Shown: positions 31,828 to 42,844, numbered from the stretch's first letter. The stretch: 64,000 bases of DNA from an uncultured Lentimicrobiaceae bacterium (GCA_964463695.1 CAYXCZ010000002.1:100155-164154); one strand, 5' to 3'. Numbers and translations: made by a program. Notes: generated by a model not told the origin, from the letters alone.

Positions 31828-34278
31828 ATGATAAAAAATCACGGCTCTAAAGTAGCCATACAGTCGGGCGACAAAACCATCACCTACCAGGGACTTATTG
31901 CAAGTATTCATTACTTTGCAGGTTTATACACAGTTTCAGAAGCTGCCCGTGTCGTTGTTTTTTCTGAAAACAGGGTTGGGTATATCGCTGCGTTCTACTC
32001 TGCCTGGCAGCAAAAAGCTATAGGTGTTCCGGTTGATTTTATGGCAACCGTTTCCGAAGTAGCTTATATCATCAATGATTGCCAGCCTGAAGTGGTTTTC
32101 TGTTCCAAAGACAAGCTTGAAACTATGCTCAAAGCGTTGGAACAAGCTGGAAGTATGGCCCGGTTAATAGTTATCGATGAGCATGAAGATGCTGTTGCCA
32201 CAGTTCCTGAAATTGCTTTCCGTCAGGTTGAGAAGGATGCTACAGCAGTACTAATATATACTTCAGGAACAACAGGAAGCCCGAAAGGCGTGATGCTCAG
32301 TTTTGCAAACCTGATTCAGAATATTGATGCAGTATCACAACATATACCTATTTATAACCAGGATTCACGCGTTTTGATTCTTCTCCCGCTGCATCATATC
32401 TTCCCGCTTATGGGTACGATGATCATCCCGCTTTATGTGGGAGCTTCAGTGGCTATAAGTCCTTCTATGGCTTCGGAAGATATTATGGGCACACTTCAAA
32501 AAAACCGCATCACTATTATCATTGGCGTTCCCCGCTTGTTTGCGGCTATCCGCAAAGGGGTAATGGATAAGATAAATAAGAGTGCTGTAGCGCGGCTTTT
32601 GTTTGGTTTAGCCGAAAAGTTACAATCTCCGGCTTTTTCAAAGAAAGTATTTGGTGCGGTGCACAAAAAGTTGGGCGGTGCAGTTGAGAGTCTTGTTTCA
32701 GGCGGTGCTGCTTTAGATCCTGCAGTTGGTAAAGATTTCCAAACACTTGGTTTTGAAGTTCTTGAAGGCTATGGAATGACCGAAGCAGCTCCTATGATTA
32801 CGTTCACCAGACCAAAAAGGGTACGCATCGGTTCACCCGGAGAAGCTATGCCAGGAACAGATATACGTATTGTTGACGGAGAAATTACAGCTGCTGGCGG
32901 TAATATCATGAAAGGTTATTATAACCGGCCCGAAGAAACAGCAGCGGTTCTCAAAGAAGGTTGGCTATACACAGGTGATCTTGGTCATCTTGACAACGAC
33001 GGTTATCTTTATATAACAGGACGAAAGAAAGAAATAATTGTGCTTTCAAATGGCAAGAATGTAAATCCTGTTGAGCTCGAGGAAGAACTTCTTAAGTCGC
33101 AGCTTGTGACCGATTTAGGTGTATTTTTTGCCAACGATCAGCTTCAGGTGATGATTATACCCAATCGTGAAGCACTGAATGAAATTAGCAACGGAGACGA
33201 TGAGGCAACCATAAAAAAACAGCTTATTGAGCCTTTCAATAAAAGCGTTTCTTCCTACAAAAAAATTATGCGATTCTATCTTACTGATAAAGAGTTGCCA
33301 CGCACGCGTTTGGGAAAACTTCAACGATTTAAGCTGGCAGGCCTCATTGAGCAGCAGGAAGAAGCTGATTCAGATATCACAACTACATCCGACCCTGTTT
33401 TTGTAATGGTTTCTTCATTTCTCGAAAAGGAAAAAGGGAGAAAAGTTCGCTCAACTCATCATCTTGAAATGGATTTAGGACTCGATTCTCTTGATAAAGT
33501 GAGCTTACAGGCATTTCTTCAACAAACATTTGGGGTTTCACCTGAGCCACACACAATGGCCGATTTTGCTAATGTAGCTGAATTATCCAAATGGATTAGC
33601 GAACATAAGACACGCATGGAAGAAACACAAATCAACTGGAAAGATATTTTGCAGGAGAAAGTTTCGCTTAAATTGCCCGCATCCTGGATCACTGGAAATA
33701 TTGCACTGTGGGCTTCACGGGTGTTTTTTAAGCTTTATTTCCGTTTCCGCTCCACGGGAATGGAAAAAATTCCGGATGGGCCATGTATTTTGGCTCCCAA
33801 TCATCAAAGCTTTTTTGATGGTCTTTTTGTTGCATCTTACCTGCGTTTCGATCAGGCTAAGAAGACCTATTTCTATGCTAAGGAAAAACATATCCGGCAG
33901 GAATGGCTCAAGTTTCTGGCTAACAGAAACAATATCATCATCATGGACCTGAATCATAACCTCAAAGAATCTATCCAGAAAATGGGAGAGGTGTTGAAAA
34001 GCAATAAAAAGATCATCATTTTCCCTGAAGGAACACGTACCTTTAATGGAAATCTGGGTGACTTTAAAAAAACTTTCGCAATCCTTAGTCGTGAGCTTAA
34101 TGTTCCAATTGTACCTGTTTCAATCAAAGGTGCTTTTGATGCTTTGCCTCGCGGCAGTTTCTTCCCCAAACCATGGAAAAAAGTGAGCGTTGAGTTCCTT
34201 GACCCTGTGTATCCAGGACAACACACTTACGAAACCCTTTCGCAACTAGTTAAGTCGAAGATACAACTTACAATGTAA
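31828..34278 (+). CDS. Tri-domain protein: AMP-forming acyl ligase, phosphopantetheine carrier domain, and PlsC-type lysophospholipid acyltransferase
   Basis: The adenylation core motifs are YTSGTTGSPKGV and YTGDLG...GRKKEIIV. The carrier-domain serine motif is DLGLDSLDKV. The acyltransferase motifs are NHQSFFDG (HX4D) and FPEGTR. Confidence 0.85.
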   Translation: MIKNHGSKVAIQSGDKTITYQGLIASIHYFAGLYTVSEAARVVVFSENRVGYIAAFYSAWQQKAIGVPVDFMATVSEVAYIINDCQPEVVFCSKDKLETMLKALEQAGSMARLIVIDEHEDAVATVPEIAFRQVEKDATAVLIYTSGTTGSPKGVMLSFANLIQNIDAVSQHIPIYNQDSRVLILLPLHHIFPLMGTMIIPLYVGASVAISPSMASEDIMGTLQKNRITIIIGVPRLFAAIRKGVMDKINKSAVARLLFGLAEKLQSPAFSKKVFGAVHKKLGGAVESLVSGGAALDPAVGKDFQTLGFEVLEGYGMTEAAPMITFTRPKRVRIGSPGEAMPGTDIRIVDGEITAAGGNIMKGYYNRPEETAAVLKEGWLYTGDLGHLDNDGYLYITGRKKEIIVLSNGKNVNPVELEEELLKSQLVTDLGVFFANDQLQVMIIPNREALNEISNGDDEATIKKQLIEPFNKSVSSYKKIMRFYLTDKELPRTRLGKLQRFKLAGLIEQQEEADSDITTTSDPVFVMVSSFLEKEKGRKVRSTHHLEMDLGLDSLDKVSLQAFLQQTFGVSPEPHTMADFANVAELSKWISEHKTRMEETQINWKDILQEKVSLKLPASWITGNIALWASRVFFKLYFRFRSTGMEKIPDGPCILAPNHQSFFDGLFVASYLRFDQAKKTYFYAKEKHIRQEWLKFLANRNNIIIMDLNHNLKESIQKMGEVLKSNKKIIIFPEGTRTFNGNLGDFKKTFAILSRELNVPIVPVSIKGAFDALPRGSFFPKPWKKVSVEFLDPVYPGQHTYETLSQLVKSKIQLTM

Positions 34279-34331: not shown

Positions 34332-34349
34332 ATCTTGATTTTTTTAAAA

Positions 34350-34988
34350 ATGATTGAAACTATTGCATCAATAAGTCTGCTCGCATGGATTGGCTATCTT
34401 GCCTCCATCATCATTGCTTTTTCGATGACCATGAGCTCAATAGTCAAGTTCAGGATTATCAATTTGGTTGGCGCTTCGCTTTTTTCGCTGTATGGCTTTG
34501 TCATCGGAGCTTATCCAGTGGGAATTTTGAACGCTTTTATCGTTTCTATCGACATTTATTACCTCCTCAAAATCTTTGGGCGTAAGGAATCATTTGAAGT
34601 GCTCGAAGTTAGGGCTGATAATCGATATATGCTTAAGTTCCTGGCATATCACCATAAAGACATACAGTTGTTTTTCCCAGGTTTTGAATACAACCCAAAT
34701 GAAACCAACATCAGTTTTTTTGTGTTGCGAAATATGGCTGTCGCAGGATTATTTCTAGGAAAAAAAGATGCTGAAGGTACTCTGACCGTAACCCTTGATT
34801 ATGTGATTCCGGCTTACCGTGATTTTAAAAACGGGAAATTTGTCTATTATCACTTAAACAATAAGTTTCAGGATCAAGGTATTAAGAAAATGGTCACACA
34901 TTTTAACAGTAAACCTCATCTTGATTATCTGCTTAAAAACGGGTTTACCAAAAATGCAAACGGCCAGCTGGAAAAGATCGTTACTTAA
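34350..34988 (+). CDS. Hypothetical protein with an N-terminal three-helix membrane module (YgjV-like) fused to a soluble C-terminal domain
   Basis: It has three hydrophobic helices in the first ~75 aa, then ~135 aa of mixed alpha/beta character that may be GNAT-like. I set the start at the ATG (MIETIAS); the ORF-track start is a TTG. Confidence 0.5.
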   Translation: MIETIASISLLAWIGYLASIIIAFSMTMSSIVKFRIINLVGASLFSLYGFVIGAYPVGILNAFIVSIDIYYLLKIFGRKESFEVLEVRADNRYMLKFLAYHHKDIQLFFPGFEYNPNETNISFFVLRNMAVAGLFLGKKDAEGTLTVTLDYVIPAYRDFKNGKFVYYHLNNKFQDQGIKKMVTHFNSKPHLDYLLKNGFTKNANGQLEKIVT

Positions 34989-35002: not shown

Positions 35003-35023
35003 CAACACTTTCTGGAAGTGTTG
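35003..35023. terminator. Hairpin shared by the convergent genes ending at 34988 and 35024
   Basis: A perfect 8-bp inverted repeat (caacactt / aagtgttg) has a 5-nt loop and abuts the stop codon at 35024. It has no strong T-tract. Confidence 0.4.
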
Positions 35024-35641
35024 TTACTTAATCAGGCTCAATCCTTCGAGTGCGCTGCTGTCGTTGGGTTTGATCAGAAGAGTTTTTTGAAACATAATTT
35101 TTGCTTCACGTAATTTTCCAGATTTGAGTTGCGACCAGGCTACCATCACAGCTGTGTCATAATCAAACGGATAAAGATTCAGCACTTTGTTGAAATATTT
35201 AAGTGCAGTAACATAATCCTCCCGACCATAAGCTATGAGACCCATACGGTAATTAGCAGTTGTGTTCATCGGGTCGATTTTCAGTATTTCAACATACTGT
35301 TTTTCAACCTGAATCCAGTTACCAAGAGCTGCAGCCGGATTTACAAAACCAAGCCGTGCTTCAATCGACATTGGCATCATTTCGATGCATTTGAGGTAAT
35401 ATGGCAGCGCATCGGTGAACCGGCCAGAAACATAATTCAACCATCCTAAACGGATATTAATCTCATAACTATCTGCTTTATACACAGATGTAATATGTTG
35501 AATTGCTGTTGCATATTCACCTTTACCTTCAGCATCATATGAAGCCTGAAACGCTTTTTGTTGCTTGTCAACATCCTGAGCCGATGCATACAGCGTCAGG
35601 AAAGTGAAACAAGTCAAAAGTAATTTTCTTAAAAGATCCAT
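35024..35641 (-). CDS. Secreted tetratricopeptide-repeat protein (last gene of the candidate operon)
   Basis: It has a signal peptide (LTLYASAQ) followed by several TPR-like A/Y/L-periodic helices. Its start overlaps the upstream gene by 13 nt. Confidence 0.7.
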   Translation of the reverse strand: MDLLRKLLLTCFTFLTLYASAQDVDKQQKAFQASYDAEGKGEYATAIQHITSVYKADSYEINIRLGWLNYVSGRFTDALPYYLKCIEMMPMSIEARLGFVNPAAALGNWIQVEKQYVEILKIDPMNTTANYRMGLIAYGREDYVTALKYFNKVLNLYPFDYDTAVMVAWSQLKSGKLREAKIMFQKTLLIKPNDSSALEGLSLIK

Positions 35642-37113
35642 TTTATTCCTCCAATTAATGTATTTGATTTCGTTGTGTAATAGTTTGTTTTCAGTTCACT
35701 GCCTTCAAAAAGATAATCGTAGCGCCTTTGATATTCATGCAAGCGATACCTTAACTGCAACTGTAAATGCTTGGTAACCATATAAGAAGCCGATGCTTCA
35801 AACCGTGAACTAACGGTCTCGGGATTGTTGTATACGATATAACTGTATTGTTCGCTTAAGTTGTTGAGATGGCCAAAAAGATAATCAAGTTCAAGCGATG
35901 ACCTTTTTCCAGGCCTCCACCCGAGCAAGAAACGGTAAGCGCTTGAACTTCTACTGTCCATATTGAGGTACAGAAACTCTCCCTGATGGACCAGTTTGAG
36001 GTTGCCCAAAGGATTGATCTGATAACCTGCGTTGATTTGAAATGCACTGCTGTCGTTGACACTGGCTTTGGTAAGACCACCGGTTGCTGTAAATATTCCA
36101 ACATGATATTTCCCATGTAACGACATGCTGTAGTCGTTTGTTTCCCAAGCAACTGTGCTAAAAGTAGTTTTGCTTAACTCAGTCTCAAACAATTCAAGTG
36201 ATCCGGTAGATGAGTCGTAAAAAGCAGTATCAGTTATCGTTTCAAGTTTTTGATCGGGGATTGTAAAGTCGCGTTTTGCCTGAAATAATTGTAAAGAAGA
36301 AACTAAACTCCACCTGTCTGATCCTGCCCACTGAAGCTGAAAATAAAGAGCCTTTTGTGTTAATTGGTGATCAAAATCTACAAGTCGTTCGTCGTTTGTT
36401 ATTTTGTAGTAATAGGCATCACCGGCAGAGCTTGTAACAACTGAATCGAGCAAAAGGTTATTTTCAAGGTAAGCAAAACGGTCGGTTGCAACAATTGAAA
36501 TATATTGTGCACCAACATACATCAGCCATTGAGGATTGGTTTGAAAATACAAACCGGCATCATAAAATTGATTGTTATGATAAAAATGCTCCTGACCAAA
36601 TATCCCCTCACTACCTGCTAATTCCACGAAATCAAGCCCATTCTCTGATCCCCGGTTTACCGTTCCGATATCAAGATGTGCCGAAACAGGTCGAAATCCT
36701 GATTTCATGCCCGATTGTTGCTGATATTCTTTAGTCATTTTCTGAAACAAGCTCCCTGCCTCTACATTTTTCATCTGATAATTCAATGACTTGGAAAGTA
36801 AAAGTATTGCCGGGGCATCTGCAGTTTTAAAATTCAACGCTTGCCGGAAATGCGTTTCGGCTTTTGCTGTTTTCTGAAGTTCCAGACAAGCAATTCCCAT
36901 ACGCATCCTCAGATAATAATAATCAAGACCCTGTTTCCGCATCCAGTTCCCTGTATCGATTAGTGTTTTCCAGTTTTTTTGCTGGTAATATTGATAGGTG
37001 ATGCTGTCGTAATAGGCCTCATTAACAATGGACTGCGCATTTGCCGGACGCTGCACAAAACCCAGGAATAAAACTATCCCAACAAAATAATATGTTAATT
37101 TATACACGTACAA
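35629..37113 (-). CDS. Outer-membrane protein: N-terminal TPR region plus a predicted C-terminal beta-barrel
   Basis: It has a signal peptide (...RPANAQ) and a TPR-like ~130 aa region. About 340 aa of alternating beta-strand pattern follow, ending in the aromatic terminus GGIKWIF typical of OMPs. The start is non-ATG (TTG or GTG) and overlaps the upstream stop. Confidence 0.6.
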   Translation of the reverse strand: MYVYKLTYYFVGIVLFLGFVQRPANAQSIVNEAYYDSITYQYYQQKNWKTLIDTGNWMRKQGLDYYYLRMRMGIACLELQKTAKAETHFRQALNFKTADAPAILLLSKSLNYQMKNVEAGSLFQKMTKEYQQQSGMKSGFRPVSAHLDIGTVNRGSENGLDFVELAGSEGIFGQEHFYHNNQFYDAGLYFQTNPQWLMYVGAQYISIVATDRFAYLENNLLLDSVVTSSAGDAYYYKITNDERLVDFDHQLTQKALYFQLQWAGSDRWSLVSSLQLFQAKRDFTIPDQKLETITDTAFYDSSTGSLELFETELSKTTFSTVAWETNDYSMSLHGKYHVGIFTATGGLTKASVNDSSAFQINAGYQINPLGNLKLVHQGEFLYLNMDSRSSSAYRFLLGWRPGKRSSLELDYLFGHLNNLSEQYSYIVYNNPETVSSRFEASASYMVTKHLQLQLRYRLHEYQRRYDYLFEGSELKTNYYTTKSNTLIGGIKWIF

Positions 37114-39295
37114 GGGTAGTTTTAGTTTCGTTTTTTATCAGCGTAAAACGCTGAAGCTGATTATTTTCGAAAACCATTTCATAGGTTCTTTTCGCAGTTG
37201 CTTTATCAAAAATAAGGAAATTAATCTCCGATTCGATCAAAATTTTTGAGCTGCTCAGATCATTGATGAATTTTACCTGTTTCATGGAATGCGTGATTTT
37301 TAAAAACATGTAAAAAGGCGCAATGAAATCCTGAATAGTGAGAAGTGCCTTGTTTGGAAAAAGCGCGGTTGTAATCTTTTCTTTCATAACAAGTCCCGAA
37401 CTGAAACCGGTGACAAGCTGATACGCTCCCAGATAAAAATCATAAAGCCACGAATCGCGGTTGCCTTCAAAATGGGTGAAATAAAAAATGTCGGGCTGCC
37501 TGATAAACCATGCTTTTGCTTTGGTTTCTTCGCATATCAGGTAACTGTTGTTGTAAATATCCGTCTCGGTTTTCCAGATGATTTCTTTAGCTTCCCCCGC
37601 ATTCTCCCGCTTGAACCGGATCAGCTGACCGGGTACAAAGTGCAGTGACAAATCCAGTAGATCAATCACCTGATTATTAGAAACAATATCACCTGTTTGG
37701 GGTTGTGAGGCCGCACAAAATTCACTTGACTCGCTGTGCTTTAAGAAGGCTGCAAAGGGGTAATTTAGTGTTGCAGCACCAATATCACCTGCTGTCTGAA
37801 ATTGGAAATGGAGATGTGGGTAAGGCGATCTTCCGGAGTTTCCGCAGCGGCCAATTTGCTCGCCTTTTCGAACATATTGTCCTTTTTTTACAAGAATGCT
37901 GCCTTTTTGCAAATGACTCATTTGTGAAAAAAACGCCTCCGCATGATGAATAACAACACTGTTGCCCCAATTATTGCTAAGGTTAGCGTCGCCAATAATA
38001 TTATCCTCAACTCCAGTTTCAACATCTGTGATATATCCATCGGCTGAAGCAATCACAGGTTTTCCGTAGCAATAATAGTCTTCCAGGCGCAGGCCTTTGT
38101 CCTTATAAGTTTTTCCTTCTTCATCGGTCATCTCAAAATCCCAAGCATATTTCCAAACATCTTTATGAGTATGTATTCCATCGATGCCCTGAGTAATAGT
38201 CCACCGGCCAAAAAACGGAAGTTTAACATGTATTTTTCCAAGATGCGACAAACGGTTTTTGTTGACCATGTAACTATATAAATTTCGCTCCGGGCTATGC
38301 TGTTGTATAAATACGAGTGTCGGCTTGTCTTGAAAGCGCTCTCTCATTATGAACACATAGAGTAACAAAATAACGACCAAATTGAATGGAAGTGAATAAA
38401 CCGAAAGCTGAAATGTGCCAAGCAAATAACCTCCGCTACTTATCAAAAATGCCAGAACCGGCACAGCAACAAATACCCAGAGGAGCGATGTAAATGAAGG
38501 AATAACAAAAAATACACCTATTGCGATGGATGTTAAGATGAAATTGAATCCGATAAAACTGTAGTTGAGTTCAGAGATGCTTGCACCTGTAAACTGATAA
38601 AAATACCAGGCAGCCACAAATCCGGCAACTGAATAAAGAAATGCCAGCCTCGACCAGAATAGCAACCCGGCTGCAATAACAATACCAGCAAACATGTGAT
38701 ACTGAAAGAAAATTGCACCTAATGACCTGAAATACATTTTAATAGCTTCAGGCCATTGAAGCAGCTCAAACCAATCATAAATTTTTACAAGTGGCAAACC
38801 TCCAAGCAGGTACATCTCATTAAGAACGTAAATACCACGCTGACTGATCTCCAGATGAGTGAACTCTCTTGTGCTTAAAGTTACGATCCAAAGCGAAAGC
38901 AAAAAAGGAAGACTGAGATAAGGCAAACCATATTTGTAAAACATTCCCTCGAGCATAACGGTGACCATAAGGCTTAGCAGTGCAGTAAAAACAAGGACAA
39001 CTAAAAACGCCAGATTGAATTGATAATACAAACCTAAGCCAAGTCCTGCCAGCAAAGCATTGAAACCATACAAACCGTCAATAACTTTCTGACGGTTCAG
39101 GCCCATGAGATAGGCGATAACATTGGCGCTGAGCACCGCAACCAATCCGCTAAAACCAGCATTAAGATCGAAAAGACTTACCAAAATCAATATGACCCCA
39201 AGAACCTTGTTCTTTGAGAAAAAAACCTGGGTATAGCTGTTGCTGATACTTTGCCAGAAATAAGGAAAAACTGTTTGCAGCCTCAGGGCTATCAT
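37100..39295 (-). CDS. Fusion protein: urea-transporter-like (UT family) polytopic membrane domain, M23 metallopeptidase domain, and an uncharacterised C-terminal domain
   Basis: The first ~330 aa are polytopic with a UT-like start (VFFSKNKVLGVILILVSLFD...). The M23 motifs are intact: HxxxD (HTHKD) and HxH (PHLHFQF, in GNSGRSPYPHLHF). About 210 further residues match nothing I recognise. Confidence 0.75.
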   Translation of the reverse strand: MIALRLQTVFPYFWQSISNSYTQVFFSKNKVLGVILILVSLFDLNAGFSGLVAVLSANVIAYLMGLNRQKVIDGLYGFNALLAGLGLGLYYQFNLAFLVVLVFTALLSLMVTVMLEGMFYKYGLPYLSLPFLLSLWIVTLSTREFTHLEISQRGIYVLNEMYLLGGLPLVKIYDWFELLQWPEAIKMYFRSLGAIFFQYHMFAGIVIAAGLLFWSRLAFLYSVAGFVAAWYFYQFTGASISELNYSFIGFNFILTSIAIGVFFVIPSFTSLLWVFVAVPVLAFLISSGGYLLGTFQLSVYSLPFNLVVILLLYVFIMRERFQDKPTLVFIQQHSPERNLYSYMVNKNRLSHLGKIHVKLPFFGRWTITQGIDGIHTHKDVWKYAWDFEMTDEEGKTYKDKGLRLEDYYCYGKPVIASADGYITDVETGVEDNIIGDANLSNNWGNSVVIHHAEAFFSQMSHLQKGSILVKKGQYVRKGEQIGRCGNSGRSPYPHLHFQFQTAGDIGAATLNYPFAAFLKHSESSEFCAASQPQTGDIVSNNQVIDLLDLSLHFVPGQLIRFKRENAGEAKEIIWKTETDIYNNSYLICEETKAKAWFIRQPDIFYFTHFEGNRDSWLYDFYLGAYQLVTGFSSGLVMKEKITTALFPNKALLTIQDFIAPFYMFLKITHSMKQVKFINDLSSSKILIESEINFLIFDKATAKRTYEMVFENNQLQRFTLIKNETKTTLVRV

Positions 39296-40653
39296 AAATC
39301 AAAATGCACTAAATGAGCCGGTACCGCCTCCATTCCGGTGATGGTATCCATGGTTTCGTTGTTTCTGATTACATGAACTTTTTCCTGCTCATCAATCAAT
39401 ACAACTTTAGGGCGCAAGGTAATAAATTGCATCCATTGTGTCATATTGTATGCTCCAACATGATGGATCACTACTTGATCATCTTTGTTTAAAAGAGGCA
39501 TGTTGATACTTTCGCGCACTACATCGATATTCATACATAAAGGCCCGTAGAGTGCGGTATCTTCGGTATATGAGGTAAATGATTGTGCCGGAGTGATTTT
39601 GTGATCATACCAAAAAGCAGTGAAAAGAATATTCACACCAACATCAAGAATCGTTGAACGCCGGCCATCAGACAGCCGTTTGTTGGCTAAAACAGTTCCA
39701 AGTAACCATGCAGCATCATCAATAAGGGCACGTCCCGACTCAATGATTAGCAGTGGAGGGTTTTTTGGACGGTAATCACTGTTCATTAGCGCTGAGGTAA
39801 TGGCTTCAGCGAAATCATCAATTGATGGACTTATGTCAGTTCCAGGTAAATACGAACCTTTCAGGGTGTTTTTCGAAGCAAAACCACCGCCCATATCAAT
39901 ATATTTGATCTCATGGTTGTATTTTGTAAGTACACTTTGAGCCAGATGTGCGAGCTTGGATGCCGCGACAGCGTAGGCCGATGGCGAAAGCATAAATGTG
40001 CCAATATGTGTATGTAATCCAACAAGATCCATCAAGCCTGAAAACAGTATTTTATTTAAAGCATCCCATGCCTGTCCGTTTTCATAGTTGAAACCAAAAC
40101 GATCCCACATTGGATGAACACCTGTGTCCATGTTGACTCTGATAGCTACTTTTGGCCGTTGTCCGCTGTTTCTGGCAATATCCTGAAGCAAATACAACTC
40201 ATCTAAATGATCAATATGTATCAGCGAATTGTTTGTAACAGCTTTTCTAAGGTCAGATTCCGATTTATCAGGACCATTGAAAATAATCTTGCTTCCCTCC
40301 ACACCGTTTCGGATGGCTTTATCGTATTCAAAACCAGAAACTACTTCAGCCCATGAACCTTCCTGATGGAAAATATTGCAGACAGCATCGAGGTAATTTG
40401 TTTTGTAGCTCCATGCAAACTGAACCCGTGGGTAGCGTGTTTCGAATGCCTGTCGGGCATTGCGGTAGTTTTTCCGGATTTTCTTTTCTGAGATTACAAA
40501 CAAAGGTGAGCCATATGATTTTATCAAATCCTTTACTGCATTACCTTCAATGTGTGTTACCGGTTCGTAAATGGTGCGCATGCCAAATTTGTTTGGCATA
40601 TTGCTTTCGAGTCTTTTAATAATCGGCCGCTCGTATGTTTTTCGTGTTGCCAT
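39292..40653 (-). CDS. PLP-dependent decarboxylase, Orn/DAP/Arg decarboxylase (alanine-racemase fold, group IV) family
   Basis: The PLP-lysine motif is SYKTNY, the phosphate-binding loop is DMGGGF, and the C-terminal catalytic-Cys motif is YGPLCMNIDV. Its stop overlaps the downstream start by 4 nt. Confidence 0.9.
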   Translation of the reverse strand: MATRKTYERPIIKRLESNMPNKFGMRTIYEPVTHIEGNAVKDLIKSYGSPLFVISEKKIRKNYRNARQAFETRYPRVQFAWSYKTNYLDAVCNIFHQEGSWAEVVSGFEYDKAIRNGVEGSKIIFNGPDKSESDLRKAVTNNSLIHIDHLDELYLLQDIARNSGQRPKVAIRVNMDTGVHPMWDRFGFNYENGQAWDALNKILFSGLMDLVGLHTHIGTFMLSPSAYAVAASKLAHLAQSVLTKYNHEIKYIDMGGGFASKNTLKGSYLPGTDISPSIDDFAEAITSALMNSDYRPKNPPLLIIESGRALIDDAAWLLGTVLANKRLSDGRRSTILDVGVNILFTAFWYDHKITPAQSFTSYTEDTALYGPLCMNIDVVRESINMPLLNKDDQVVIHHVGAYNMTQWMQFITLRPKVVLIDEQEKVHVIRNNETMDTITGMEAVPAHLVHFDL

Positions 40654-40729
40654 GTTGTATTTTCTAAATGTGTTTCTGTCAATAATAAATTATAATTACA
40701 CTAAGAGAATAACAATCCCGGATAGGGGT

Positions 40730-41776
40730 TTATAATTCTCCGGTTGTCGAAATTTGTTCAAACTCATGTAGATCCACAATCATATCCCATGCATAGCGGA
40801 TAAACATTTTTCCAATTTCGTAACTTTTATAAGGCTCTGTTGGCCAACCCATTGCTAATCTTGTCAAGGCCTCAGGTATGTTTTGACCAACACCTACTGC
40901 AAGGTAAATCCAGGCAGGCATACGCGGATTGATTTCGAGCAGGTAGTACTCTCCGCTTTTATCTTTCATAAGCTCCAGCTCAAAACCACCGCGCCATTTT
41001 GTCGAACGCAAAAAACGATCGGTGAGAGCCAATGCCTCTTTGTCCGAAATTGAAATACCTCCCCAGGCCTTTCCTTTATCGGTTATATATTGCTTGCGCA
41101 TTGCAACAGCCGCGATCGTATTTCCTTCTCCGTCGCCTAAGCCGGTTACGTTGTATTCTGTACCATGCACAAATTCCTGAATAATAATAGGGAGTCCCCA
41201 CTTGGCTGAAATCTTATTGAAAGCAGATTTCGTTTGATCAAAATTGTATGCTAAAGTGGCATCATAGTACTTGCCTTTAACAACAAGCGGCCATTCATAC
41301 TCTTTTTCAAGCGACTGGGATTCATTCACATTGTAAATAGCTTTACTGCGAGGCACGTGAATTGAATATTTTTCACCGAACTCATTCAGGTTTACTTTAT
41401 GACGTTCTTCAAACTGATCCATTGTTGGCAAAAAAGTATGGATACCCATAGATTTTAGCTTTTGTTCCAGTTTGATAAATGAATAAAGCTCTGCATCAAA
41501 GTTTGGGATTATAACATCCAAATGCTCCAGTTCATGAATGTATTCCAATCTGCTGAGCAAAACTTCAGTACCAGTGGAAGGGTAGGGTATTTGATAGGTT
41601 TTATCAACAATATCGTGCATGTATATGCCAGGTTCGAGCGATTCATAAGAAAGGCCGATGATACGGCAATCAAATGAAGCTGCTTCGCGCAGTCCACGAA
41701 TAACTGCAACTCCCGGCCCCGGACTGTCGATGGCGTTCAGTCCTGTGACACCGATGGTTAAGATTGGCTTATTCAT
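40730..41776 (-). CDS. ATP-grasp ligase (substrate unknown)
   Basis: It has a pre-ATP-grasp N-terminal domain, a central ATP-binding region (PLVVKGKYY...IIQEFVHGTEYNV), and the Mg/ATP motif LLEINPRMPAW. Confidence 0.85.
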   Translation of the reverse strand: MNKPILTIGVTGLNAIDSPGPGVAVIRGLREAASFDCRIIGLSYESLEPGIYMHDIVDKTYQIPYPSTGTEVLLSRLEYIHELEHLDVIIPNFDAELYSFIKLEQKLKSMGIHTFLPTMDQFEERHKVNLNEFGEKYSIHVPRSKAIYNVNESQSLEKEYEWPLVVKGKYYDATLAYNFDQTKSAFNKISAKWGLPIIIQEFVHGTEYNVTGLGDGEGNTIAAVAMRKQYITDKGKAWGGISISDKEALALTDRFLRSTKWRGGFELELMKDKSGEYYLLEINPRMPAWIYLAVGVGQNIPEALTRLAMGWPTEPYKSYEIGKMFIRYAWDMIVDLHEFEQISTTGEL

Positions 41777-42020
41777 CGTCGTGCTGCATCAGGCGGTATT
41801 GCCTCATCATCTCTAGAAAATCATGCAGGTCGCGCTCAATTGTTGCAGTTTCAGCAACATATTGTTCTTGTATCGAAGCAATGATTTGCTGATGTGTGTG
41901 GCCTTTTCGTAATAGATTTAGCATCTCGAGCCCGACCGGATTAACGGTATACGACTCCCCCGACCCCGGGTTGAACACAAAGCCGTTGTCGCTTACTGCA
42001 ATATTACTTTTTACTTTCAT
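41769..42020 (-). CDS. PqqD-family small protein (RRE / peptide-chaperone-like)
   Basis: It is 83 aa long with a pattern typical of PqqD-like winged-helix proteins (FVFNPGSGESYTVNPVGLEMLNLLRKGHT...I...L...Y). Its stop overlaps the ATP-grasp start by 8 nt. Confidence 0.65.
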   Translation of the reverse strand: MKVKSNIAVSDNGFVFNPGSGESYTVNPVGLEMLNLLRKGHTHQQIIASIQEQYVAETATIERDLHDFLEMMRQYRLMQHDDE

Positions 42021-42092
42021 GTGTTTTGGTGCTTATGCGTTTTCAATGTGCAAGATTAGTTTCTTTTTTTTGTTCCCCTTCATGAAATTCAA

Positions 42093-42674
42093 TCAAAGTT
42101 GTGTAAAATTTTCAGCGGAGAGGCTTATATCAGCCACTTGAAGCCGTATCCCAATCCGCTCTTTTTCCGGAAGTACTTTATAATCAGTAACCGAATATCC
42201 AGTTACCTGCTTAAACTGAGTGGAGAGGTATTGAACACTGCTGTAGCCCATCATATAGGCAATCTCACTTAATGTAAGTTCCTCAGATTGAATTAATTCT
42301 TTAACTTTTTCGATTCTTTGAAGGATGATATATTTTTCGAGTGTGATCTTTTCAATTTTTGAGAATATTGTTGAAAGGTGCTGGTAACTTTTATTGAACC
42401 TTGCAACGATAAAGTCCGAGTTGCGAACCATCGCATTATAAGTTGTGTGGTGTACCAGTTCAACGATTACCTTTTTAATTTCTTCAACAAGTACCTCATC
42501 TTTGTCTTCTATAACTTTAAAACCAAGACGTGCAAAAACTTCGTTTATACGGGTAATATTGATCGGACTATCGACAAATGAAAGGGTGACATCGCCCAAA
42601 CGGGCTTTCTTAACCTCAACTCTAATTTGGTTGAGTTCAATTATGAGCAACTTCAAGCAACAATCGCTGATCAT
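42093..42674 (-). CDS. AraC-family transcriptional regulator with a small N-terminal ferredoxin/HMA-like domain
   Basis: It has a C-terminal HTH_18 region (LTLSEIAYMMGYSSVQYLSTQFKQVTGYSVTDYK). I moved the start to the ATG giving MISDCCLKLL..., which matches the usual M-x-x-x-C-C/R-C N-terminus of this Bacteroidota regulator family. The ORF-track GTG start at 42713 is also possible. Confidence 0.8.
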   Translation of the reverse strand: MISDCCLKLLIIELNQIRVEVKKARLGDVTLSFVDSPINITRINEVFARLGFKVIEDKDEVLVEEIKKVIVELVHHTTYNAMVRNSDFIVARFNKSYQHLSTIFSKIEKITLEKYIILQRIEKVKELIQSEELTLSEIAYMMGYSSVQYLSTQFKQVTGYSVTDYKVLPEKERIGIRLQVADISLSAENFTQL

Positions 42675-42735
42675 ATTGCTTAAGAGGTATCGTTGCTGAA
42701 TTTTTTCTTCCACTAGTGTCTGTTGTCAATGATGG

Positions 42736-42743
42736 CAAAAGTA
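42736..42743 (-). promoter_or_regulatory. -7 box (TActTTTG on the minus strand) upstream of the AraC-led operon
   Basis: The plus strand reads caaaagta. It lies 23 nt upstream of the GTG at 42713 and 62 nt upstream of the ATG at 42674. Confidence 0.4.
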
Positions 42744-42814: not shown

Positions 42815-42844
42815 ATAAAAAAAGCATCACCGTAGCAATGCTTT
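42815..42844 (-). terminator. Weak terminator after fabH
   Basis: A 7-bp stem (aaagcat / atgcttt) is followed on the minus strand by a T-run, seen as an A-run on the plus strand. Confidence 0.4.

Follow-up and report, generated by a model that had tools for sequence, protein, structure and literature searches.

In several siderophore pathways (FslA/FslC for rhizoferrin, SbnE/SbnH for staphyloferrin B and AcsD/AcsE for achromobactin), an ATP-dependent ligase amidates or esterifies a side chain, after which a clade-2 decarboxylase removes the α-carboxyl group. A comparable set is found in butirosin biosynthesis, where the small partner BtrI is combined with the ATP-grasp ligase BtrJ and the clade-2 decarboxylase BtrK acting on a tethered amino acid. 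A gene cassette resembling these systems was analysed in a 64,000-nucleotide stretch of DNA from an uncultured Lentimicrobiaceae bacterium (GCA_964463695.1, CAYXCZ010000002.1:100155-164154), hereafter the window. The minus strand of the window contains seven consecutive open reading frames (ORFs), which encode an AraC-family regulator, a PqqD-like protein, an ATP-grasp ligase, a pyridoxal 5'-phosphate (PLP)-dependent decarboxylase, a fusion of a urea-transporter-fold (UT) channel with an M23 metallopeptidase, a β-barrel outer-membrane protein (OMP) and a secreted TPR protein. With a likelihood judged to be slightly short of even, the locus is a member of a large, uncharacterised, envelope-spanning cassette operating by the mechanism proposed in the Discussion. 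Searches of the literature returned no description of the cassette and no NCBIfam model naming any of its components was matched above the cut-off, in agreement with an earlier interpretation of the window made from its sequence (the sequence-only reading), according to which no characterised system has this composition. The cassette appears to be a system without a known counterpart, the anatomy of which is well supported and the mechanism partly inferred.

Each of the described systems differs from the cassette in at least one defining feature that was tested. In the siderophore pathways the ligase is an NRPS-independent siderophore (NIS) synthetase of the IucA/IucC type, whereas the cassette has an ATP-grasp enzyme and neither an MFS exporter nor a TonB-dependent receptor. 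Moreover, those pathways contain no counterpart of the UT-amidase, the TPR/OMP pair or the PqqD-like protein, which has the fold of a recognition element (RRE) of peptides that are ribosomally synthesised and modified after translation (RiPPs). BtrI is a phosphopantetheinyl carrier, whereas the RRE fold of the cassette lacks a conserved acceptor residue, no PP-binding match was obtained with Pfam among the block proteins, and aminoglycoside genes are missing. The cassette differs from LysW/LysX in having neither a conserved acidic C-terminal acceptor nor a RimK-type ATP-grasp. The lasso peptide B1 RRE is similar in its PqqD family match and in the presence of a YERPxI motif in the system; however, the motif of the cassette is located at the N-terminus of a 453-aa enzyme instead of a precursor peptide, and the lasso cyclase, the B2 protease and the precursor gene are absent.

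Conduits equipped with a cytoplasmic processing enzyme are known from the peptidase-containing ATP-binding cassette transporters (PCATs) and from aquaglyceroporin–arsenate reductase fusions. The conduit of the cassette likewise carries a cytoplasmic-side enzyme which would be expected to generate or release the transported species, but the conduit is of the SLC14/UT type and the enzyme is M23, SIR2 or SIR2+GNAT. Finally, a periplasmic TPR module and an outer-membrane barrel are encoded together with an inner-membrane partner in the BcsC, PgaA and AlgK/AlgE systems. The barrel of the cassette is smaller, no glycosyltransferase or synthase was found in any locus of the block, and the NCBIfam models of PgaA and BcsC gave about 17-20 bits versus the cut-offs of 367 and 858, respectively.

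Gene organization and conservation of the cassette

The coordinates of the seven ORFs (35024-42713 in total) were re-found exactly as given by the sequence-only reading, and every domain assignment made there was confirmed by Pfam and NCBIfam searches. Four junctions are overlaps of 8, 4, 14 and 13 nt (PqqD/ATP-grasp, decarboxylase/UT-M23, UT-M23/OMP and OMP/TPR, respectively) and the remaining two are gaps of 72 and 76 nt. These values were reproduced as well, except that the 14-nt overlap becomes 8 nt with the start of the OMP gene in the public gene call (37107, resulting in 492 aa). Such packing is by far tighter than chance would give.

The UT+M23 protein has thousands of relatives, and a scan at one genome per species identified at least 551 species genomes with a UT-M23 relative, which are mainly environmental metagenome-assembled genomes. 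For the comparison of loci 80 were kept, and the counts of genes upstream and downstream of UT-M23 refer to the loci with enough flank on the relevant side. All 80 originate from metagenome-assembled genomes, the groups represented being Bacteroidales, Lentimicrobiaceae, Marinilabiliales, Saprospiraceae, 'Chlorobiota' and the like; the locus WOUZ01000001.1 shares 98% identity with the window. The PqqD, ATP-grasp and decarboxylase genes were located upstream of UT-M23 in the same order in 56 of 60 loci; of the four that differ, one lacks PqqD only. The OMP and TPR genes were located downstream in 63 of 63. The genes flanking the block varied from locus to locus. Overlapping of the PqqD and ATP-grasp genes was detected in 55 of 59 loci and that of the OMP and TPR genes in 60 of 68, the overlap being exactly 13 nt in 56 of the latter. 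Across the loci, the ATP-grasp and the decarboxylase shared 61-90% and 66-91% of their residues with those of the window, respectively, and the identity of the OMP was far lower (20-54%).

The results show that the six genes from PqqD to TPR are inherited together and, as read from their arrangement, are mostly translationally coupled. The high identity of the ligase and the decarboxylase points to a strongly selected function. The sequence-only reading had expected a block conserved in related genomes and acting as one functional unit, and both expectations were borne out, by the neighbourhood check with its hundreds of species and by the conserved order, overlaps and fusions (see below). For the AraC gene (42093..42713, minus strand as all cassette features below; Pfam HTH_18 1.5e-13 and HTH_AraC 5.6e-10), the public gene call gives a probable start at ATG 42674 (193 aa). 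This gene preceded the block in the same orientation in 24 of 54 loci. The conserved unit was therefore counted as six genes and not as the seven originally proposed; judged by this distribution, AraC is a facultative partner.

Gene fusions and sister cassettes

An exhaustive ATP-grasp search (E<=1e-30) resulted in 232 representative proteins. Among these relatives were a protein combining PqqD with the ATP-grasp (P0397), one combining the ATP-grasp with the decarboxylase (P0327) and tandem double ATP-grasps, and such pairwise fusions in other lineages tie the trio together at the level of sequence. In two remote loci (L090, L093) the UT+M23 block was found with an ATP-grasp 46-47% identical and a UT-M23 only 27-28% identical to the proteins of the window. 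The sister cassettes L087/88, L091, L095 and L096 contain PqqD, one or more ATP-grasps and the decarboxylase; the UT domain that comes next has SIR2 or SIR2+GNAT as its fusion partner in place of M23, and the ligase and decarboxylase genes directly precede this fusion. A periplasmic TPR protein accompanies the SIR2-type cassette in L087/88 and L091; in L095 and L096 the upstream flank does not extend far enough to show it. The sirtuin motifs (GAGxS, TQNVD, HG and the Zn cysteines) are intact, and the genes of the sister cassettes, which occur in high-GC lineages, abut or overlap. A metagenome scan with UT+SIR2 produced mostly ordinary sirtuins, the full-length relatives being L095 and L096 only. 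The comparison shows that the UT channel of the cassettes always bears a C-terminal amide-acting enzyme, M23 here and SIR2 or SIR2+GNAT elsewhere. The core of the cassette therefore consists of TPR protein(s), the RRE, ATP-grasp(s), the decarboxylase and a UT channel with its amide-acting enzyme.

Several relatives of the ATP-grasp were found in other settings. L085 (1-9436 and 12670-14583) encodes PqqD and a ligase–decarboxylase fusion, and a 637-aa protein with faint DUF5939/cyclase matches stands in place of the UT fusion; the neighbours are 1918-aa TPR, TonB_C and 879-aa HEAT-repeat proteins. A lone ATP-grasp with 51% identity (L089 10001-11056) occupies the site which is syntenic to that of the whole block in L003, the shared context being a large type IX secretion system (T9SS) protein and, further on, GcpE-PorZ-RecO. 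This gene looks like a decayed remnant of the cassette. An ATP-grasp paralogue of 41% identity (L092 10001-11047), without PqqD, decarboxylase or UT, lies in a glycan-biosynthesis cluster with MBOAT, GT2, epimerases, a DegT aminotransferase and an M1 peptidase; relatives of the ATP-grasp may act on sugar-linked substrates.

The decarboxylase/UT-M23 junction, a 4-nt overlap in the window, is an insertion hot spot. In L025, L027, L034, L035, L037, L041, L046, L049 and L058 an IF-2B family gene is inserted there on the same strand, and a fragment of it was found in L077. The encoded proteins are MtnA/ribose-1,5-bisphosphate isomerase-like, 276-318 aa long, with mutual identity of 30-44% and scores far under the equivalog cut-offs. 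The gene gives the impression of a long-standing but optional seventh component, and a connection with ribose-phosphate or methylthioribose is hinted at. The inserts of L004/L030, L031, L042, L052, L055 and L063 differ by locus; encoded there are DUF302 proteins, a DUF5714 protein, an ATPase of the AAA_14/DUF4143 type, and a PIN toxin accompanied by a small partner.

Decarboxylase and ATP-grasp ligase

Structure-profile matches placed the decarboxylase (39292..40653, 453 aa) in the FslC/SbnH/BtrK/diaminopimelate decarboxylase (DAPDC) clade of the alanine-racemase fold. The closest solved structure was the N-citrylornithine decarboxylase FslC/FigC (7kh2, 4.8e-60), and the values for DAPDC and BtrK were 3e-37 and 1.3e-23, respectively. 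K84 (SYKTNY), GGGF 255-258 and C373 (GPLCM) are kept in all ten aligned cassette variants, and the set of PLP lysine, Gly loop and catalytic Cys expected of such an enzyme is, by alignment, complete. The FigC clade consists of decarboxylases acting on already conjugated amino acids, namely SbnH, AcsE, MccE and BtrK (PMC7857480).

Two specific identities were considered and rejected. As LysA, the enzyme scored 217 bits versus the cut-off of 297.9 with the equivalog TIGR01048, and the DAPDC segment NDxxRPxxY containing the distal-carboxylate Arg reads NILFTAFWY, with F344 replacing the Arg. As FslC/FigC, it reached 242 bits versus the cut-off of 500 with the model NF041039, and the citrate contacts H357 and R387 of FslC correspond to I376 and Q406. 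The pocket signature T345, M374, I376 and Q406 is common to the M23-type and SIR2-type cassettes, which suggests one substrate class. In the public gene call (L001 8697-10004) the decarboxylase starts at the internal Met of MPNKFG and has 435 aa. By sequence conservation, the start of the 453-aa form is the correct one, because few parts of the protein are as conserved as the additional N-terminal residues; the database entries of this family are probably truncated at the N-terminus and miss the YERPxI segment.

The ATP-grasp ligase (40730..41776, 348 aa) was assigned with Pfam and NCBIfam to the carbamoyl-phosphate synthetase (CPS)/PurD-like 'ATPgrasp_Ter' type. In the PDB profile search the values were 8e-11 for CPS and 1.8e-9 for 2pn1, the nearest solved relatives being CPS modules, 2pn1, PurD and biotin carboxylases. 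RimK reached only E = 0.12 against the profile of the ligase, which is not near RimK/LysX or graspetide ligases. The scores and the replaced specificity residues uphold the view that the ATP-grasp and the decarboxylase are not orthologues of LysA, SpeC or CarB.

PqqD-like protein and its putative docking peptide

The PqqD-like RRE protein (41769..42020, 83 aa; Pfam PqqD 2.3e-13), the proposed adaptor of the cassette, has a lasso PqqD chaperone as its best NCBIfam match. The C-termini of more than 60 sequences are acidic, but neither their length nor their final residue is conserved, and they lie internally where PqqD is fused to the ATP-grasp. A LysW-like carrier role was ruled out on these grounds, and the same observations contradict a BtrI/LysW-like covalent carrier. 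For the precursor search, ORFs of the window with at least 20 aa were listed and small intergenic ORFs were clustered across loci. No conserved small ORF was found within ±2.5 kb of the block across the checked loci, the only recurring clusters being PqqD itself and its shadow frames. An RRE domain, as in RRE-dependent RiPP clusters, is present; a precursor gene and a class-defining RiPP enzyme (lasso cyclase, radical S-adenosylmethionine enzyme, YcaO, LanB/C, graspetide ligase) are absent from the block. As far as sequence comparison goes, the lack of a conserved small ORF and the unconserved PqqD C-termini argue against a RiPP cluster of the classical kind and likewise against a carrier of the LysW/BtrI type.

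The N-terminal tail of the decarboxylase (residues ~5-29, KTYERPIIKRLESNMPNKFGMRTIY; 40567..40641) contains a YxxPxI motif and is a candidate RRE docking peptide, with KTYERPIIKRLESNMPNKFG as the YERPxI-bearing putative ligand of PqqD. The decarboxylase start (R)YERPxI(K/R)(K/R)LExxMPNKFG is almost invariant (66 of 68 loci), and YxxPx[I/L] is retained in nine of ten cassette variants. Discrete lasso-type RREs recognise [Y/W]xxPx[L/V/I/F/A] (PMC13381572, PMC12710340), and the YERPxI motif of the decarboxylase matches this pattern. In combination with the lasso-chaperone match and the pairwise fusions, the motif points to an RRE that may bring ligase and decarboxylase together in one complex.

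UT-M23 fusion protein

The fusion protein (37100..39295, 731 aa; Pfam UT + M23) consists of a UT domain at residues 1-318 (38342..39295; Pfam UT 1.3e-54), an M23 (LytM-type) metallopeptidase domain at residues ~360-510, predicted to be cytoplasmic (37766..38218; Pfam M23 1.9e-17), and a β-rich C-terminal domain at residues 511-731 (37100..37765), which was modelled confidently with AlphaFold2 (AF2). The predicted local distance difference test (pLDDT) value of the whole model was 88. In the Foldseek comparison, residues 1-317 were superimposed on dvUT/UT-B with target-normalised TM-scores of 0.77-0.87 and residues 360-510 matched LytM domains. The β-rich domain gave no Pfam match even at E<=10 and no relatives among the 50 Foldseek PDB matches listed, all of which were of the UT or M23/LytM type. 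The UT+M23 architecture has been listed in a 2026 survey of UT domains, without functional study (PMC12998343).

The M23 residues H377, D386, H461, H494 and H496 are invariant among 96 sequences and are also kept in the 27-28%-identity variants; the Zn ligands and catalytic His residues of M23/LytM enzymes are all present. The EINPR, SYKTNY, GGGF, GPLC and PHLH motifs were found, but the HxxxD of the sequence-only reading was misplaced: the literal motif comprises the non-conserved H375 and D379, whereas the family-invariant pair is H377 and D386, with an atypical H-x8-D spacing. Of the 10 pore residues of dvUT, about 8 are identical or conservatively replaced in the UT domain of the window, both Thr being changed to Ser and Glu187 to Ala194. 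With such a pore, an oligomer or peptide is unlikely to pass. The score with the urea-transporter equivalog TIGR03441 was 117 versus the cut-off of 274.6.

UT proteins have both termini inside the cell (PMC11589576), and the stretch that follows the last UT helix is rich in Lys and Arg. We infer that the M23 domain would face the cytoplasm, out of reach of the sacculus, because the UT C-terminus is intracellular and the same fusion point holds the NAD-/acetyl-CoA-dependent SIR2/GNAT enzymes in the sister cassettes. The same two observations argue against a periplasmic location of the peptidase.

Outer-membrane and secreted proteins

The AF2 model of the OMP (35629..37113, 494 aa) reached a pLDDT of 92.4 and contained a signal peptide, a TPR-like region at ~30-132 and a barrel at 139-491 with approximately 14 strands, four of them very long, and a terminal Phe. 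Foldseek matches to FadL, TodX, OmpG and BcsC were obtained at E-values of 1e-9 to 1e-7 with low TM-scores (0.3-0.6), which on the basis of the model indicates generic barrel similarity only. The model and Foldseek agree with the description of the protein as TPR + β-barrel given in the sequence-only reading. The last gene (35024..35641) encodes a secreted TPR protein of 205 aa with a signal peptide, matching TPR families at up to 3.7e-16.

Regulatory elements and neighbouring genes

The TActTTTG box upstream of the AraC gene (42736..42743), similar to the -7 element of Bacteroidota, was confirmed as a sequence match; however, TAnnTTTG occurs 66 times in the window versus 73 occurrences expected by chance. 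Placed just after the fabH terminator, it is plausible as a promoter, but unproven. That terminator-like hairpin with a U-run (42821..42844; -11.2 kcal/mol, z = -2.55) separates the cassette from the fabH-plsX-rpmF unit. The hairpin claimed to follow the last gene is also present, directly after the stop codon and facing a convergent gene (35003..35023), but it is weak and not significant by itself (-8.1 kcal/mol, z = -0.96). The promoter box and the terminal hairpin were rejected as stand-alone support, neither being statistically backed. In the gap between AraC and PqqD (42021-42092, minus strand), a TAatCTTG near-match to the Bacteroidota -7 box lies ~35 nt upstream of the PqqD start and may be a separate, AraC-controlled promoter of the six-gene block.

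The product of the convergent gene (34335-34988, plus strand), 217 aa long and hydrophobic in its N-terminal half, has no Pfam or NCBIfam match. In L005, L010, L021 and L022 this gene again lies downstream of the cassette in convergent orientation. In the window it separates the cassette from an 816-aa Aas-like acyl-ACP synthetase/acyltransferase, a fusion of AMP-binding, phosphopantetheine-binding and acyltransferase domains (31828-34278, plus strand, opposite to the cassette). A T9SS-sorted protein of ~1260 aa (Por_Secre_tail) was found in L003 (3309-7106) and L004 (2579-6364), and also in L025, L027, L032, L034, L077 and L089 (6087-9878); its gene directly precedes that of PqqD in several distant loci. 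The copies of L003 and L004 are 46% identical, with papain-like CGQ...GH motifs near the N-terminus. A homologue was sought in the window and not found. The PADLOC models matched none of the seven proteins, and an anti-phage defence system was rejected.

Discussion

According to the mechanism proposed here, the cytoplasmic ATP-grasp would attach a carboxylate to an amino acid at its side-chain group, leaving the α-amino-acid end free, and the FslC/SbnH/BtrK-clade decarboxylase would strip the α-carboxyl group to give an amide-linked amine. The ligate-then-decarboxylate logic would be that of rhizoferrin, staphyloferrin B and butirosin, and the analogy drawn in the sequence-only reading fits BtrJ/BtrK as well as FslA/FslC. 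The RRE would present no ribosomal precursor; instead, it may hold the complex via the N-terminal YERPxI tail of the decarboxylase. At the mouth of a trimeric UT-type channel, the membrane-tethered cytoplasmic M23 (or sirtuin) would cleave or de-acylate the amide, and a small uncharged amine or amide would cross the inner membrane through the channel. The secreted TPR protein and the TPR-barrel OMP would then take over the product for release or envelope use, and in the lineage of the window the operon would be governed by the AraC regulator. M23 enzymes and sirtuins both cut amides on ε-type amines, which makes their interchange understandable.

The more specific version, a channel-coupled machine in which an RRE without a ribosomal precursor docks the decarboxylase on the ligase and an M23 or sirtuin on the UT pore unmasks an amine or amide to be passed to the TPR/OMP pair, is regarded as tentative and rather unlikely as a whole. 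A complete export route from the cytoplasm to the outer membrane is what we infer from the composition of the cassette, as the sequence-only reading did; its overall interpretation was supported in part.

Several observations weigh against the proposed mechanism. The profile searches revealed no close characterised relative of the ATP-grasp, and the conservation of the decarboxylase tail could be structural. The β-rich C-terminal domain is left unexplained. The narrow, urea-like pore restricts the permeant and does not obviously fit an amine; moreover, the permeant may differ between lineages, because the pore phenylalanines are altered in remote variants. Synteny is the only link of the TPR and OMP proteins to the product, and in three loci UT-M23/OMP/TPR was found without the trio within 10 kb, from which it follows that the two halves of the cassette are separable.

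An unlikely alternative to the proposed mechanism is the modification of cell-wall precursors. The ATP-grasp would add a diamino acid to the free carboxylate of a cytoplasmic precursor peptide, the decarboxylase would convert it to an amide-bound diamine or decarboxylate the free D-centre of peptide-bound diaminopimelate (DAP), the RRE would bind the stem peptide, M23 or the sirtuin would edit or reverse the mark on lipid-linked precursors, and the TPR protein and TPR-barrel OMP would bind the modified wall as an outer-membrane tether. Wall or DAP metabolism is where the classical members of each of the three enzyme families belong (Ddl, LysA, M23 endopeptidases), and M23 enzymes are known mainly from peptidoglycan peptides, including amides on the DAP ε-amine. 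The hydrophobic residue replacing the DAPDC Arg would admit a larger, peptide-linked substrate, the partners are periplasmic or outer-membrane proteins, and no ribosomal precursor is encoded nearby. However, wall modification leaves the conserved urea-type pore without a role, the block contains no Mur/Fem-type or lipid II-related gene, and a hydrolase working on precursors in the cytoplasm would be futile in the absence of regulation. Peptidoglycan-bound diamines are known from Negativicutes and are not known from these phyla, which also weighs against it.

It is improbable that the cassette is a RiPP-like or scaffold-peptide pathway with its precursor encoded elsewhere, in which the RRE would present the peptide to the ATP-grasp, an amino acid would be added and decarboxylated on the scaffold, and M23 or the sirtuin would free the product or remove a leader beside the exporter. 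The pearlins, fosfazinomycin and the peptidase-containing ABC exporters are the parallels to such a pathway, and small molecules made via scaffold peptides do exist (PMC13622209). The lasso-type chaperones among the best matches of the RRE, the peptidase fused to a membrane protein and the presence of MccE, which acts on a peptide-nucleotide, in the same decarboxylase clade are in line with it. Against this stand the missing small ORF within ±2.5 kb together with the abutting or overlapping genes of the sister cassettes, the YxxPxI recognition motif built into the decarboxylase itself, the CPS/PurD-like rather than graspetide- or RimK-like ATP-grasp, and a UT pore too narrow for peptides. The 61-91% conservation of the ligase and decarboxylase is also atypical of RiPP tailoring enzymes.

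A role in urea or nitrogen physiology was likewise considered improbable. The pore would be a genuine urea or ammonia channel which regulates, or is regulated by, the attached enzyme, the trio would make a polyamine-like amine tied to nitrogen status, and the TPR/OMP pair would serve as the outer-membrane passage. The Pfam UT score, the TM-score of about 0.8 to dvUT and the retained pore residues are consistent with such a channel, UT fusions to regulatory modules (EF-hand, ankyrin) are known (PMC12998343), and SIR2+GNAT is a classical acyl switch. However, no urease, urea carboxylase or agmatinase gene was present in any examined locus, the score with TIGR03441 was below the cut-off, and the pore phenylalanines vary in remote variants. 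The invariant catalytic residues of M23 argue for an enzyme and not a regulator, and urea passes outer membranes without a dedicated TPR-barrel.

Chance adjacency of LysA-, CarB- or MepM-like primary-metabolism genes to unrelated membrane genes, as the source annotations 'diaminopimelate decarboxylase', 'carbamoyl-phosphate synthase large subunit' and 'urea transporter' would have it, has a negligible probability in view of the order and overlaps kept across hundreds of species with differing flanks, the gene fusions, the sub-cut-off equivalog scores and the replaced specificity residues.

The proposed export mechanism breaks three usual assumptions, namely that M23 peptidases act outside the cytoplasm, that an RRE denotes a RiPP cluster and that UT channels move only urea. 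Genome miners at present risk labelling the locus as lysA, as a RiPP cluster or as a urea transporter. If the channel-coupled version is true, it would provide the first function of a cytoplasmic M23 peptidase, the first non-urea role of a bacterial UT channel and, in Bacteroidota and further phyla, a wall modification or envelope-directed metabolite that is new. Identification of the product could bring to light a so far undescribed modification of the envelope, or a secreted metabolite, in one of the major environmental phyla, and enzyme-gated channels could turn out to be a general principle.

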